The position numbers and the translations under genes were made by a program. From Candidatus Saccharimonadales bacterium (GTDB taxonomy: Bacteria > Patescibacteriota > Saccharimonadia > Saccharimonadales > JAYRRP01): a stretch of DNA of 64,000 bases. Below the pieces are notes generated by a model. The model did not search any database. It saw only the letters and a program-made list of their open reading frames with translations, and was not told the origin of the DNA. The DNA lies in contig JAYRRP010000006.1 of the NCBI GenBank assembly GCA_041910055.1, forward strand, positions 5,057-69,056, read 5' to 3'. Shown piece after piece: positions 46,245 through 56,191 of the stretch; within the stretch, counting starts at the first letter, position 1, and each line of letters opens with the position of its first letter.

Positions 46245-46273
46245 AAAAAGCCCCAGCTTTTTCATGAAAGCTG
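46245..46273 (-). terminator. probable original ssrA terminator, now separated from the tmRNA body by the island
   Basis: On the minus strand, just after the orphan ...CCAGCTCCACCA copy, CAGCTTT / AAAGCTG forms a stem followed by GGGCTTTTT. Confidence 0.5.
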
Positions 46274-46722
46274 AAGCATTGAATGAGCTGGTGGAGCTGG
46301 CGGGTACACGTTGCTTCGCAACTTGTCCAGAAGTTTACATACTACCAACAAGTTGGTGTCTGAAATTTCTCTTGCAGATTGCCACTGGCAATCCTCACCC
46401 TCTCGGGGCAGTCCCCACCATACAAACTTTACCAAAGAAAAGACCCCACTTTTCAAGTGAGGTACTTTCTTTGGTGGACCACCTTGAAAATAGTGCACCC
46501 CTCATCTTTGAAGAAATACGGAGATGGCGAAATATAATCTGGGACGACTACTTGGAGCATAAATACCGTAAAGAACGCCTCACAGATACACTAGTCCCCT
46601 CAGGGTATACACCACACACTACCGAACTCGCTGTTAGTGGTAAGGCGGGTGGTGCACGGGCCCAATCCCCACGTGATTTAGAAAATAGTGTTTTAGGAGT
46701 AAGAGATGGCAACTCTAATTAG
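46264..46722 (+). CDS. open frame crossing attL; candidate displaced 3' segment of the serine recombinase gene
   Basis: The frame stays open for 137 codons inside the island after the core and has no internal ATG. The only ATG (46264) lies 25 nt outside the island. Codon phase across the core matches that of the recombinase at attR. Confidence 0.35.
   Translation: MKAEALNELVELAGTRCFATCPEVYILPTSWCLKFLLQIATGNPHPLGAVPTIQTLPKKRPHFSSEVLSLVDHLENSAPLIFEEIRRWRNIIWDDYLEHKYRKERLTDTLVPSGYTPHTTELAVSGKAGGARAQSPRDLENSVLGVRDGNSN
46289..46307. repeat. left att core (attL): orphan 3' end of tmRNA
   Basis: TGGTGGAGCTGGCGGGTAC is identical to 56142-56160. Confidence 0.85.
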
Positions 46723-47203
46723 TGATGTAACTGAAATTGACTTGTATGACTGTCTTCTGCAAGACCCCTTCCGTCATTTTGGTCAGATACGAGCTTATAT
46801 ACCGTACCCGTACAATCAAACTGTTTATCTTTCATTAAGCAACACTAAGCAGCGGTACGGACGTAGGACTTGGTTCTTGTGTAGTCATTGCGGTAAAAGG
46901 GTTTCAAAGCTGTACGTAATCGGAGGTAACATAGCGTGCAGACACTGCTTCGGTCTGAAATATGATAGCCAGTACCGAAAAGACCCGTTGAGTAGAATGA
47001 GTGTCAAGGAGCGAAAACTGGCAAGATACGAAAGTCAAAAACGCCGTTTCTGGTATGCCGGTTCACTTACTCAATTTGGCAAGCGATATTATAAGCACCG
47101 TGAAGATATGGAAGCCATCAATCAGGAAGTTATTGAGTACTTTCAAAAAATGGACAGCAAGCTCTATTCAGGTAAGCGTGAGGCAACATCGCGAATTGCC
47201 TGA
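46706..47203 (+). CDS. hypothetical zinc-ribbon protein (165 aa)
   Basis: AGGAG lies 7 nt upstream of the ATG. CxxC...CxxC pair (CSHCGKRV...ACRHCFGL). The start overlaps the preceding frame by 17 nt. Confidence 0.6.
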   Translation: MATLISDVTEIDLYDCLLQDPFRHFGQIRAYIPYPYNQTVYLSLSNTKQRYGRRTWFLCSHCGKRVSKLYVIGGNIACRHCFGLKYDSQYRKDPLSRMSVKERKLARYESQKRRFWYAGSLTQFGKRYYKHREDMEAINQEVIEYFQKMDSKLYSGKREATSRIA

Positions 47204-47463
47204 GTAAAGGGTGTGTCTGATTGTTGGACTTCTGCTGGCAGATCACTAAATGGCACAAGGGACTTATTATCAGGGTCAAACTTAGTAGCCCACGCAGACC
47301 ACGTGTCGTGGACATCTTCGTTGGTAACGGCCGTGCCTTTGCTTAGTGCCAGCACGGCATACGCGTTGAACAGCTCATCAAGGCCTTTTTCAGGTAACTC
47401 TGATGGGCTAAATTTGCTACGTATTTGGTTCGCTAGGTCTCGTATATAGGTTTCGTCAGCCAT
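47164..47463 (-). CDS. small acidic soluble protein (99 aa), third gene of the TIR-like operon
   Basis: The ATG shares the TAATG junction with the stop of the upstream gene. No family recognised. Confidence 0.55.
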   Translation of the reverse strand: MADETYIRDLANQIRSKFSPSELPEKGLDELFNAYAVLALSKGTAVTNEDVHDTWSAWATKFDPDNKSLVPFSDLPAEVQQSDTPFTQAIRDVASRLPE

Positions 47464-47945
47464 TACTTAATAATAACCCCGCCGAGTGCTCCGACTAGCA
47501 CAAGAACGTAAATCAAGCCAAAGACTACCGGAACAATACCCTCAATGTTGGTAAGGTCGGTGTACCTGTCCTTGAATGTTATCCAGCGTTTACGCCAGCC
47601 CTTTGGTTCGTCAGTTTTAGCACCTTTGAGGAGTTCCCACTCATCTGTGAAAATCTGGCAAGGCAAGTCTTCTTCCATTTTGTTAATAACAGCGTATTTT
47701 GCCTTGTTTAGGCGTTTGTAAGACCGTATAGCGAAGAACCAGGTAAAGGCCAGGACAATACCGACTGCTGACATAAAAATCAGTACAGCTCTTTTATCTT
47801 CGGCTAGTTTGCCGTACATAAATCCCAGCAGCGTTACGAGGGTTGAGTTGAGCGTTAGAAAGAAGCCGTTGGCAGTCATACGGCGTGCTGATACACGGTC
47901 TGCCATTTCTACTGCTGTCTTGTAGATGTCCAGCTTGTCGCTCAT
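47463..47945 (-). CDS. 3-TM membrane protein (160 aa), possible SLATT-like 2TM effector
   Basis: N-terminal amphipathic helix, a TM hairpin (FFLTLNSTLVTLLGF / LIFMSAVGIVLAFTWFFAI), a loop of about 60 aa and a C-terminal TM helix. Starts 4 nt after the TIR-like gene stop. Confidence 0.6.
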   Translation of the reverse strand: MSDKLDIYKTAVEMADRVSARRMTANGFFLTLNSTLVTLLGFMYGKLAEDKRAVLIFMSAVGIVLAFTWFFAIRSYKRLNKAKYAVINKMEEDLPCQIFTDEWELLKGAKTDEPKGWRKRWITFKDRYTDLTNIEGIVPVVFGLIYVLVLVGALGGVIIK

Positions 47946-54193: not shown

Positions 54194-54493
54194 ACCATAA
54201 GGAATTTCTGTATGAAACAGTTGGCGTATAATAAAGGTAGCACTTTAGTAATCAACATAAAATCAATGTCGCTAAGACAGTTTTGGATTCCCGATACGGG
54301 GAATAATTCTGTCATAGCGACTTTTTTATTTCCCGCACCGGCGTCCAGCTTGGCGAGGAAATATGGGAACAAACGGCAGCAACAAGAAAGAATATACCGA
54401 GGCAGACCTTGAGGAGTATTGCCTTTGGCTTTATGGCATTTACGAAGAAGAAACGGCTATGCAGTCAGATTAAGTAAAGTTGGTTCAGGGGGA

Positions 54494-54580
54494 GCTCGGC
54501 GTGCAATTTATCACTACAACTCAAATATATAGACGACAGTCAAATTACGTCTTCGCCGAGCCGTTCCCTTTGACTGTCGT
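54494..54580 (+). promoter_or_regulatory. interleaved inverted repeats upstream of the serine recombinase start
   Basis: A=GCTCGGCG (54494-54501), B=ACGACAGTCAAA (54533-54544), A'=CGCCGAGC (54554-54561), B'=TTTGACTGTCGT (54569-54580). The order is A-B-A'-B'. The RBS GAGGTGG and the ATG (54602) follow. Confidence 0.4.
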
Positions 54581-54601
54581 TTATGACTTTGAGGTGGTGC
54601 T

Positions 54602-56191
54602 ATGAAAGACCAAGCTATAGCACTATGCCGTATTTCTTCCGCAGGACAGACATCAGGTCATAGCCTAGAAGCCCAGGAACAGAGCGTTCGTAATACGGCT
54701 AAGGAGATGGACTTGGAAATTGTAAACATCTGGAGCATTACGCAGTCCAGTAAGGCTGGAGTAAATATCAGACGTCGTGATTTAGTTGAGATAAAAGACG
54801 CTTGCAAGAAAAATCGCAAAATTAAGTACTTGCTAGTTGATCGTGTTAGCCGCTTGATGCGTGAATGGAAGATGATGATGGCTTACATTTTTGAACTGGA
54901 AGCACTAGGCGTTAAGGTCATATTCTGCGACTCTTCACAGCGACATCTTAATAGTGATGACCAGATTTCACAGCTTTTACTAATCATTGAAGGGTTCAAT
55001 ACCGAGAAAGAAAATAAAGAACGAGCAGAAACGACTATTGCAAAAATGATAGCTAGGTACAGTGAGGGCTACTACCTTTCACACCCACACGCAGGCTATA
55101 AGAAGTCAGAAACACCTGGTCTGCACGTACCCGATGAACCACGTTTTTCTTTGCTGCAAAAAGGCAGCCGTCTCATTATTTTTGACCAGTACACAATACC
55201 CCAGGCAATACGCTGGATGAACGATAATGGCTATCGCACTATAGGTGGCAAGAAGCTAGACGTTAACCACTACATTGAGTTCATTGTAGATAGGTACTAT
55301 TGCGGTATTATTGACATCAAAAAAGAAGGTCCGCTTAGTGGAGTAAAGGGTGTAAACGGCCTTCATCAGCGTATGCTATCAGAACGGGAGCACGAACTAC
55401 TGGTAGGCATCGTTACTAAGCGAAACCCTCGCATTAGGCAGCAGCATAATCCTGAATTTCCGGTTGGTAACCTGCTACGTCATCACGAGTGTATGGATAT
55501 TGGGAAATACGAGAAGTTTACCGGCTTTTATAAAAATCGGGGTAAACGCCCCAACGGTAAGCCTAGAAATAAGCTGCCAGTATATAGGTGCAGGGATTGC
55601 AAAAAAGAAATTTCAAGAGGAAAAATTCACGACAGCACAACCGAACACCTGAATAATCTAGAGTTACTGCCTAGCGACAAGGACTTTAGAGCAGCCTTGG
55701 TGCGTGTATGGAAACGACAGCGTGGTTCGGTTGCACAGCGTCTGCTGGTGCTGGAATCTAGCAAAGCCGCGCTGGAGCAGAAAATCAAGGAAGCAGCGGC
55801 AGCCTACACTCTGGAGCAAGAAGGTGGCGCAAAGAACGCCCTCAAGCTGTTGCTGGATGATTACGACAAGGAACTAAGGCAGATAAGGGCAGATATTATC
55901 GCAACTCGTGATATAGAGCTGGAAAGCGAGGACTTTATTAAATTTGCGATGGGTTTTGCCGAAAACCTCAAGAACAACTGGTGGGAGTTAAGCTGGGAGA
56001 ACCGCAAGAGGGGTGAACAAATTTTGTTTAACGGGAAAATTTATGCCGATAACTCTGCAAAAGTTCACACCCCCAACTTGAGCAGTATTTACAGATTGGG
56101 AACAAACAAAAAAGCACTAGATGATTCTTCTAGTGCTCTTATGGTGGAGCTGGCGGGTACTGCCCCCGCGTCCGCTAGTTTATCTAGTTAG
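54602..56191 (+). CDS. large serine recombinase (529 aa as integrated)
   Basis: Resolvase-type catalytic N-terminus (ALCRISSAGQ...SLEAQ, VDRVSRL), recombinase domain, zinc ribbon (YRCRDCKK) and coiled coil. The last 50 nt lie inside the tmRNA gene. Confidence 0.9.
   Translation: MKDQAIALCRISSAGQTSGHSLEAQEQSVRNTAKEMDLEIVNIWSITQSSKAGVNIRRRDLVEIKDACKKNRKIKYLLVDRVSRLMREWKMMMAYIFELEALGVKVIFCDSSQRHLNSDDQISQLLLIIEGFNTEKENKERAETTIAKMIARYSEGYYLSHPHAGYKKSETPGLHVPDEPRFSLLQKGSRLIIFDQYTIPQAIRWMNDNGYRTIGGKKLDVNHYIEFIVDRYYCGIIDIKKEGPLSGVKGVNGLHQRMLSEREHELLVGIVTKRNPRIRQQHNPEFPVGNLLRHHECMDIGKYEKFTGFYKNRGKRPNGKPRNKLPVYRCRDCKKEISRGKIHDSTTEHLNNLELLPSDKDFRAALVRVWKRQRGSVAQRLLVLESSKAALEQKIKEAAAAYTLEQEGGAKNALKLLLDDYDKELRQIRADIIATRDIELESEDFIKFAMGFAENLKNNWWELSWENRKRGEQILFNGKIYADNSAKVHTPNLSSIYRLGTNKKALDDSSSALMVELAGTAPASASLSS
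56142..56160. repeat. right att core (attR) = 3' terminus of tmRNA
   Basis: TGGTGGAGCTGGCGGGTAC is identical to 46289-46307. Confidence 0.85.

Follow-up and report, generated by a model that had tools for sequence, protein, structure and literature searches.

An ssrA island of a Saccharibacteria genome and the probable division of its large serine recombinase gene on integration

The island and its two ends

The stretch of DNA analyzed here (the window) comprises 64,000 nucleotides of contig JAYRRP010000006.1 from a Candidatus Saccharimonadales bacterium. Its element of interest is a 9.7-kb integrative island of this Saccharibacteria genome, which is inserted at the CCA end of the gene for transfer-messenger RNA (tmRNA, ssrA) and carries the gene of a serine recombinase at its right end. 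The tmRNA gene, which is the integration target, lies at 56142–56533 on the minus strand and was called by Rfam as a full-length tmRNA (RF00023, model positions 1–374; 63.4 bits against a gathering score of 47), with its CCA end at 56142–56144. ARAGORN, run on the window, made no call of this gene. The T-loop of the tmRNA (window 56142–56170) reads GGCAGUA and is not the usual UUCGAAU-like loop.

The recombinase gene (54602–56191, plus strand), recognized from the list of open reading frames (ORFs), Pfam and homologues, encodes 529 amino acids in its integrated form. At its 3' end it overlaps the tmRNA gene's 3' end in antisense, so that its final 16 codons (MVELAGTAPASASLSS) are antisense tmRNA, and the tail that is gained on integration in this way, here LAGTAPASASLSS, is not conserved. 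A Resolvase domain (PF00239) was found at residues 5–156 (E=6.9e-16), and R10, S12 and Q16 are invariant across 45 homologues, as in an N-terminal catalytic domain with a nucleophilic serine. The Recombinase domain (PF07508) is weak in the window protein (19 bits, cut-off 21.1) and is precomputed in many homologues; C297, C330 and C333, of the zinc ribbon, are conserved among homologues. The AlphaFold2 model of a longer homologue, P0041 (46 aligned sequences, mean predicted local distance difference test score, pLDDT, 86.5), has long paired helices at residues 388–468, and the family thus shows the recombinase domain and the zinc ribbon with an inserted coiled coil that are expected of large serine recombinases. 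Foldseek aligned this model over more than 520 columns with the SPbeta, Bxb1 and phiC31 integrases (E 1e-14 to 1e-10). The predicted structure confirms that the family belongs to the large serine recombinases; the enzyme is a serine recombinase and not a tyrosine recombinase of the SSV family.

At the left end of the island there are two short copies of the tmRNA end. The outer copy (46289–46307) reaches from halfway through the T-loop to the CCA and is an exact repeat: the 19-nucleotide sequence TGGTGGAGCTGGCGGGTAC, antisense tmRNA, occurs exactly twice in the window, here and at 56142–56160. The inner copy (TGGTGGAC, 46472–46479) sits 183 nucleotides inside the 19-nucleotide repeat, has its own terminator hairpin, and is the left junction (attL core) typical of the family, as judged from the architecture of 14 other ssrA islands. 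Measured by way of this inner junction the island is 9670 nucleotides long (46472 to 56142), its right boundary being the attR core TGGTGGAG (56142–56149), which was placed by comparing the sites attL, attR and attP across 18 islands and four free forms. The 9-pair hairpin that abuts the inner core (46443–46463, minus strand; found by the terminator scan and as inverted repeat I4 at 46431–46475) is the former downstream flank of ssrA, the B arm of attB.

The sequence that follows the inner core is the probable displaced 3' segment of the recombinase gene. It consists of 83 codons including the junction codon (46471–46722, plus strand) and matched a hidden Markov model (HMM) of the recombinase extension, described below, with 67.8 bits. 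The conserved module starts at 46471 (TTG GTG GAC CAC CTT GAA AAT) and the segment encodes LVDHLENSAPLIFEEIRRWRNIIWDDYLEHKYRKERL.. plus a longer tail that is common to locus L027 and relative P0124; the module motif is written as HLENSAPLIFEEIRRWRNIIWDDYLEHKYRKERL at 46479–46580. Positions 46474–46505 (GTGGACCACCTTGAAAATAGTGCACCCCTCAT), conserved both as DNA and as protein in a comparison of 17 sequences, are the probable P' arm of attP. When the recombinase up to M514 is joined to 46474, the product is a protein of 596 amino acids, which aligns without a gap across the junction to the longer homologues P0044, P0041 and P0061. Excision through 46472/56142 would therefore be expected to rebuild this protein, and integration displaces the last 82 recombinase codons to a site 9.7 kb away.

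From these and the comparative data given below we consider it likely that the serine recombinase family of this island has its attP inside the 3' end of its own gene, that integration splits the gene, and that the outer 19-nucleotide repeat is a relic. A preliminary description of the locus had already proposed that the gene is split by integration, and had placed both junctions at the 19-nucleotide repeat. The split itself finds support in a conserved C-terminal segment that has moved to the opposite junction in phase and in long forms of the protein encoded on circles; the 19-nucleotide repeat is not the junction.

Free and integrated forms of the recombinase gene

A homologue search with the hypothetical 657-amino-acid fusion of the preliminary description as query gave 117 relatives, apparently all from Saccharibacteria or other Patescibacteria. 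Most are 510–560 amino acids long and end, like the 529-residue form of the window, in antisense tmRNA (..MVEL[A/V/P]GTAP.S..), or else in antisense translations of tRNA genes, which taken by itself is an outcome that the preliminary description had named as refuting its proposal. Seven or eight of them (P0041, P0044, P0061, P0069, P0093, P0105, P0111) carry on differently after ..LVE and continue into the module, with an uninterrupted C-terminus of the form ..LVE-HLEKSSPLIxEEIRRWRxLLWDDY... The tails of P0044 and P0041 read HLEKSTPLIFEEIRRWRYLLWDDYIEYK.. and HIEKSSPLIVEEIARWRDLLWEDY.., respectively, while those of P0061, P0069, P0093, P0105 and P0111 are more divergent and keep the RWR motif. 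In the P0041 model the extension is predicted to form helices at 540–549 and 551–582, with pLDDT 82–91 over residues 551–580.

The contigs that encode these long forms are free elements or look like such. P0061 is found on three 4636-nucleotide contigs from three samples, each with a 30-nucleotide terminal overlap and each in a different rotation; L002 and L004 are 98% matching once rotated. Terminal overlaps being the signature of a circular molecule, these contigs indicate a 4606-bp circle, and a 30-nucleotide terminal overlap likewise indicates that the P0093 contig is a circle of 7976 bp. For P0041, P0044, P0069 and P0111 the contigs are linear and either short or phage- or plasmid-like, and no tmRNA follows the gene. 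Across attP the recombinase ORF is thus unbroken on the free-form contigs, two of them circular and four linear, and it is split in 18 integrated islands. The attP site is accordingly part of the integrase ORF, with the intact protein encoded in the free form, as in a partitioned gene. A metagenome scan gave 8 loci only and no additional free forms, and scans of viral contigs by DNA pattern and by protein returned nothing.

The integrated islands were compared by means of an HMM built from eight extension tails. It was run on 20 loci from genomes, 8 from metagenomes and 3 additional contigs, all translated in six frames; for the locus search a closer set of sequences replaced the 45-sequence alignment, which was too diverse. 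In 15 ssrA islands (3.1–9.7 kb) the module was found upstream of the recombinase, on the same strand, at attL. It always starts with xTG GTG GAG CAC.. and stands in the phase of the recombinase through that gene's own copy of TGGTGGAG, and it runs for 43–83 codons to its stop. A terminator-like hairpin, the old downstream flank of ssrA, immediately precedes it in most loci, and the attL pattern that the window shares with the 14 other ssrA islands is a terminator followed by xTGGTGGAG and then CACCTYGAAAA... The closest relative of the window island, L027 (recombinase 77%, Xer-like gene 93% and DUF488 gene 91% identical), has a typical attL, and its 77-residue extension is homologous to that of the window over its whole length; P0124 has the same long tail.

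The same in-phase arrangement was seen in three distant relatives, L017, L018 and L022 (33–37% identity), of which at least two are in tRNA genes, L017 and L022 being inserted at tRNA-gene CCA ends. Antisense tRNA translations (for example ..GIEPGLPG and ..RQDSNLRP) form the tails at the attR of L017 (about 11500), at that of L022 (about 11540) and in P0064–P0112. Since distant members end in this way, the targets of the recombinase family as a whole are the CCA ends of tRNA and tmRNA genes alike.

Tandem copies or remnants of the pattern terminator hairpin, recombinase 3' remnant, core and extension, 0.5–1 kb apart, were noted in several loci (L008 at 3030, 3808, 4298 and 4815; L017 at 6419, 7570 and 8293; L023 at 3251 and 4209; L009 at 4785; L013 at 6128). 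They suggest either that elements have repeatedly accreted and decayed at ssrA or that non-autonomous mini-elements are present. Where junctions follow one another in this way, the upstream recombinase would regain an extension from its neighbor.

The displaced module shows the marks of a protein-coding sequence. Over codons 10–36 the mean pairwise differences at codon positions 1, 2 and 3 are 0.30, 0.125 and 0.44, and the ratio of nonsynonymous to synonymous polymorphism (pN/pS) is 0.37. The corresponding substitution ratio (dN/dS) of the window against the other loci is 0.1–0.27 for six loci and 0.64 for L001, and from locus to locus RRWR is spelled with CGN or with AGR codons. Judged by these substitution patterns, the displaced module is under purifying selection at the protein level. 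The first approximately 11 codons are near-invariant in DNA, third positions included, among the 17 sequences compared, as would be expected if they served in addition as the P' arm of attP. At their C-termini the extensions read ..LVVP, ..NPLGL or ..GNSN and carry no ssrA-like tag. A profile search with the extension against 1.84 billion representative proteins (E<=1e-3) gave 96 representative matches, all of which, save two spurious long ones, are small ORFs, and the module was therefore found in no other protein context. This search of representatives listed no long-form recombinases, which are likely clustered under integrated-form representatives. The attL copies are conserved, from which it would follow that the elements regularly pass through a free state, as the segment would otherwise decay.

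Polymorphisms between attL and attR flank the first TGG of the core, which is the CCA end of the tmRNA, and so bracket the exchange there. L014 has TGGAGGAG at attL and TGGTGGAG at attR; in the window the two sites read ..GGAC and ..GGAG, and the base before TGG differs too. Recombination with attB would hence take place in the first TG(G) of TGGTGGAG (56142–56144). As read from the sequence, attP has GAGCAC to either side of its first TG, at +4 to +9. We also noted TGGAGGAG instead of TGGTGGAG in some Saccharibacteria tmRNA genes and some attP sites (L019 1577; L032 4575; L033 1451; L014 5486 and 6020; L001 2163), which implies U instead of A at the discriminator position before CCA. For excision at the inner junction the predicted circle junction is GATTCTTCTAGTGCTCTTATGGTGGACCACCTTGAAAATAGTGCACC (joined form ..GCTCTTATGGTGGACCACCTTGAAAAT..) and the predicted empty site GAGGTACTTTCTTTGGTGGAGCTGGCGGGTACTGCCCCC; for excision at the outer repeat these would be GCTCTTATGGTGGAGCTGGCGGGTACACGTTGCTTCGC (joined form ..GCTCTTATGGTGGAGCTGGCGGGTACACGTTGC..) and GCATTGAATGAGCTGGTGGAGCTGGCGGGTACTGCCCCC.

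With the crossover at the CCA end, integration would leave the whole mature tmRNA intact and remove only its terminator. Directly after the tmRNA CCA the terminator scan placed an intrinsic terminator with a 12-pair stem and a T-run (56110–56140, minus strand), which is the antisense strand of the recombinase codons ..NKKALDDSSSAL.. and is an element-supplied replacement for the displaced ssrA terminator. Every locus examined has the same hairpin and A-run at its recombinase gene's 3' end. That NKKAL is conserved while the next residues vary can be explained by the antisense strand encoding the terminator. One stretch of DNA is thus at once recombinase coding sequence, attP arm and, in antisense, the replacement terminator of the target gene.

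The sequence of events that we propose is as follows. In the free element, as circular and other unintegrated homologues show, the gene is continuous and ends in the conserved module of about 45–83 amino acids, which is predicted to be helical. On integration the gene beside ssrA comes to read into antisense tmRNA while its true 3' segment is left, in phase, at the far junction (46471–46722), and the ssrA terminator is exchanged for the hairpin and T-run antisense to the last conserved recombinase codons (NKKAL...). The two isoforms may then differ in activity, with the physical state of the element setting the activity or direction of the recombinase, and the amphipathic RWR helix may be what modulates it. 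The full-length form could be integration-competent, and the truncated form inactive, excision-prone or dependent on a separately encoded peptide. One may go further and imagine a self-toggling switch, family-wide in Patescibacteria, in which the full-length protein integrates and loss of the helix or release of the peptide favors attL x attR excision, which rebuilds the gene; we regard this as a tentative and rather doubtful proposal. If it were true, direction would be encoded in the topology of the gene and not in a separate directionality factor. Direction control of large serine integrases is an active question and the enzymes are used as genome-engineering tools, so that a recombination reaction which rewrites the C-terminus of its own enzyme offers a testable natural example of state-dependent control.

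Alternative readings and the outer repeat

Several observations weigh against a recombinase gene split at the inner junction. No circular junction or empty site was found for the window element itself, whose recombinase is on a single public contig, and the viral contigs were negative. Gene callers predict the segment as an ORF of its own, its start codon lying at the junction, and it may have a role as a separate protein. No origin was found for the outer repeat, and the frame of the window is in phase and open through the spacer, for which the chance is only about 0.02–0.08.

The second of these points leads to the reading that the conserved segment is in the main a small gene in its own right, for example that of a directionality factor or regulator, which starts from the xTG or GTG, and that its fusion to the recombinase in the free form is incidental. 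In the window both an in-frame TTG (46471) and GTG (46474) are available, GAGG stands 8 nucleotides upstream of the TTG, and the public annotation of the contig calls an 83-residue gene (P0121) from the inner junction start. This call is one of many: callers predict standalone ORFs of 39–114 amino acids in 29 clusters, there are about 94 representative small ORFs, and an ATG, TTG or GTG is always present at the junction. Yet the phase across the core is kept in 18 of 18 integrated islands and in all free forms, including those with different P' DNA and different targets, and this counts against an independent gene, which would have no need of phase. The variable chromosomal flank, moreover, holds neither a promoter nor a ribosome-binding site that is conserved. 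We therefore hold a mainly independent gene to be unlikely, bearing in mind that both roles can coexist.

The preliminary description took the 19-nucleotide repeat as the working att core, so that excision would join 56160 to 46308 and yield a recombinase of 657 amino acids including a 55-codon spacer. Its account of the reading frames was accurate. The recombinase ORF and the ORF at 46264–46722 (152 amino acids) cross the repeat in the same phase, both offsets being 1 mod 3, and both read ..VELAGT.. (..MVELAGT.. in the right copy, ..LVELAGT.. in the left). The frame 46309–46719 has 137 codons, is stop-free and has no in-frame ATG, and the chance of 137 open codons, put on the order of 1e-3, was computed as 9.5e-4 at the base composition. 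The exactness of the repeat and this phased, open frame speak for the larger product, as do the Dehalococcoides ssrA islands, which use a 20-bp repeat with crossover in the T-loop (PMC3146451), and the outer fragments with the same T-loop end in L010, L012 and L014.

The frame does not, however, behave as one unit. Its part from 46471 is conserved, whereas the first 55 codons (46308–46472) are not conserved as protein; selection is seen on module codons 10–36 and there is no conservation of the spacer (46308–46470; blastn and comparison with L027). The chance of 55 open spacer codons is 0.06–0.08, which is unremarkable, and the other two plus-strand frames hold one stop each. A 42-nucleotide patch of the spacer (46377–46418) is 90% identical to L012 (7644–7685); relative to the junction, however, L012 has it in another frame. 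L027, the closest relative, has neither outer repeat nor spacer. Natural long forms align without a gap only to the inner junction, and the 657-residue product would have a 61-residue insertion relative to all free-form homologues; the excised form is expected to have about 596 residues instead.

The outer copies in other islands bear on the same question. Outer tmRNA 3' fragments to the left of the inner junction recur, with the same T-loop endpoint in the window, L010, L012 and L014, and carry their own terminator (46250–46277, minus strand, in the window) and a spacer of 106–1139 nucleotides, resembling a nearly complete pseudo-attB. The path from outer to inner site is out of phase in L010 (5903–6025, 106-nucleotide spacer) and in L021 (5230–6368, a longer fragment 1139 nucleotides away); it is in phase with a stop present in L012 (7554–7733, 180-nucleotide spacer) and in phase with a stop before the extension in L014 (5486–6019, 534-nucleotide spacer). 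The left frame of related islands is thus out of phase or stopped at the outer copies in four loci, whereas the inner segment is in phase in 18 islands. In addition, the right flank of the outer site matches attB (tmRNA), unlike the conserved P' arm. The outer 19-nucleotide repeat is most likely a relic or pseudo-attB of a separate event at this hotspot and not the family junction, the spacer would then be no part of the recombinase, and a 657-residue excised form seems quite improbable to us.

Two ideas on the outer repeat and spacer were tried and set aside. The Xer-like tyrosine recombinase of the island was considered as the maker of the 19-nucleotide T-loop repeat and rejected, because Xer homologues are present in L027 and L011, which are without outer repeats, and absent from L010, L012 and L014, which have them. 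Blastx of the spacer as a decayed recombinase 3' end gave only weak, non-significant matches. Around the patch shared with L012 (window 46377–46427) there are small hairpins (TTGCCACTGGCAA; GGGGCAGTCCCC then ACCA) resembling an inverted degenerate T-arm and CCA end; Rfam gave no match in this hairpin region. The 534-nucleotide spacer of L014 holds, by eye, a small GIY-YIG-like ORF remnant (5620–5790, minus strand).

That the conservation reflects only a DNA binding site (the P' arm of attP), or a frame open by chance, is highly improbable: the first approximately 11 codons are almost invariant at all three positions, as in a recombinase binding site, but conservation extends more than 100 nucleotides past the core against a half-site of about 25 bp, third positions are the most variable past codon 10 and arginine is written with either codon family, relatives with unalignable DNA still have the peptide motif, and stops always fall 43–83 codons after the core.

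Comparison with known systems and cargo of the island

A gene divided at attP is known from the SSV1-type archaeal integrases, whose attP lies in the int ORF: integration leaves the gene split, and the intact protein is encoded by the free form alone. These are tyrosine recombinases split into large N- and C-terminal parts; the serine recombinase of the window, unlike them, loses only a C-terminal helix of 43–83 amino acids and keeps its catalytic and DNA-binding domains.

The closest described case is that of the Dehalococcoides ssrA islands, which carry a CcrB-like serine recombinase, DsiB, whose gene always overlaps the att site (McMurdie et al. 2011, PMC3146451). Those authors speculated that dsiB is fully functional perhaps only on a circular element or beside a neighboring island (PMC3146451); the statement of the preliminary description that no such case was known for an ssrA-targeting serine recombinase was therefore too strong. 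Going by the described gene arrangement, DsiB is like the window enzyme, a large serine recombinase of about 540 amino acids beside ssrA with its 3' end over the att site. Its stop codon is supplied by whatever lies beyond, and the Dehalococcoides islands accumulate in tandem. For these islands a 20-bp repeat and a T-loop crossover were inferred, and no conserved displaced segment was demonstrated (PMC3146451), whereas the family junction described here is 8–12 nucleotides of identity at the CCA end, TGGTGGAG(C); the outer 19-nucleotide repeat of the window also ends in the T-loop and so matches the Dehalococcoides repeat. DsiB is accompanied by a small second serine recombinase, DsiA, none of which was seen in the window island: no second resolvase-domain protein was present among the island ORFs scanned, which were not every ORF of the island.

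In mycobacteriophage BPs and its relatives (PMC4557955, PMC3694055), attP likewise reportedly lies in a coding sequence and integration alters the C-terminus of the product and so signals the state of the element. There the affected gene is that of the repressor, the integrase is a tyrosine integrase, and a degradation tag is removed; here the gene is that of the recombinase itself and the extensions are untagged. The phiC31, Bxb1 and SPbeta integrases share domain architecture and fold with the window family, and short att sites with a non-palindromic central dinucleotide may be common to both. The canonical enzymes, as described, have attP elsewhere than in the integrase gene and depend on a second protein for direction, whereas in the window family a C-terminal appendage is added or removed by the recombination reaction itself. 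That an appended C-terminal polypeptide can switch direction is known from engineered fusions of integrases with recombination directionality factors (PMC5737554).

Islander elements insert at the 3' end of tRNA and tmRNA genes (tDNAs) with the function of the target preserved, as here (PMC4383910). They restore a displaced 3' gene fragment, whereas in the present islands the whole mature tmRNA is kept and the terminator alone is replaced. The Islander paper of 2014 knew only tyrosine integrases to target tDNAs (PMC4383910); the family described here shows that serine integrases, too, can specialize on tRNA and tmRNA gene ends. A systematic survey of large serine recombinases makes no mention of tRNA targets or split genes, and, beyond the 2011 remark on DsiB, our searches of the literature turned up no account of a serine integrase gene that integration splits. 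For annotation, the many small "hypothetical proteins" at the ends of Saccharibacteria islands are displaced integrase 3' ends.

The first gene downstream of the left junction (46706–47203, plus strand, from the ORF list) encodes a 165-residue protein with CxxC..CxxC. As the preliminary description had noted, it is placed after the frame before it as in a coupled operon, with AGGAG at 46695–46699, an ORF start at 46706 and a 17-nucleotide overlap. The gene is kept in the related islands L027 (tblastn 52% identity to 2072–2530) and L011. Pfam, NCBIfam and PADLOC gave no family for this protein or for the extension. Just upstream of the serine recombinase is the gene of the Xer-like tyrosine recombinase (52848–54193), with counterparts in L027 (5781–7129, 93%) and L011 (6521–7363, 52%); in the window and L027 it is followed by a DUF488 gene, 91% identical between the two. 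The cargo in between (47164–52757) falls into two parts. Three genes on the minus strand, for DUF7701, the octameric membrane protein 8xMP and a TIR-like (ThsB-like) protein, form a possible defence module; the other part is a metal cluster with genes for a CsoR-type repressor, for DUF305, for a P-type ATPase and for a cation-diffusion facilitator.

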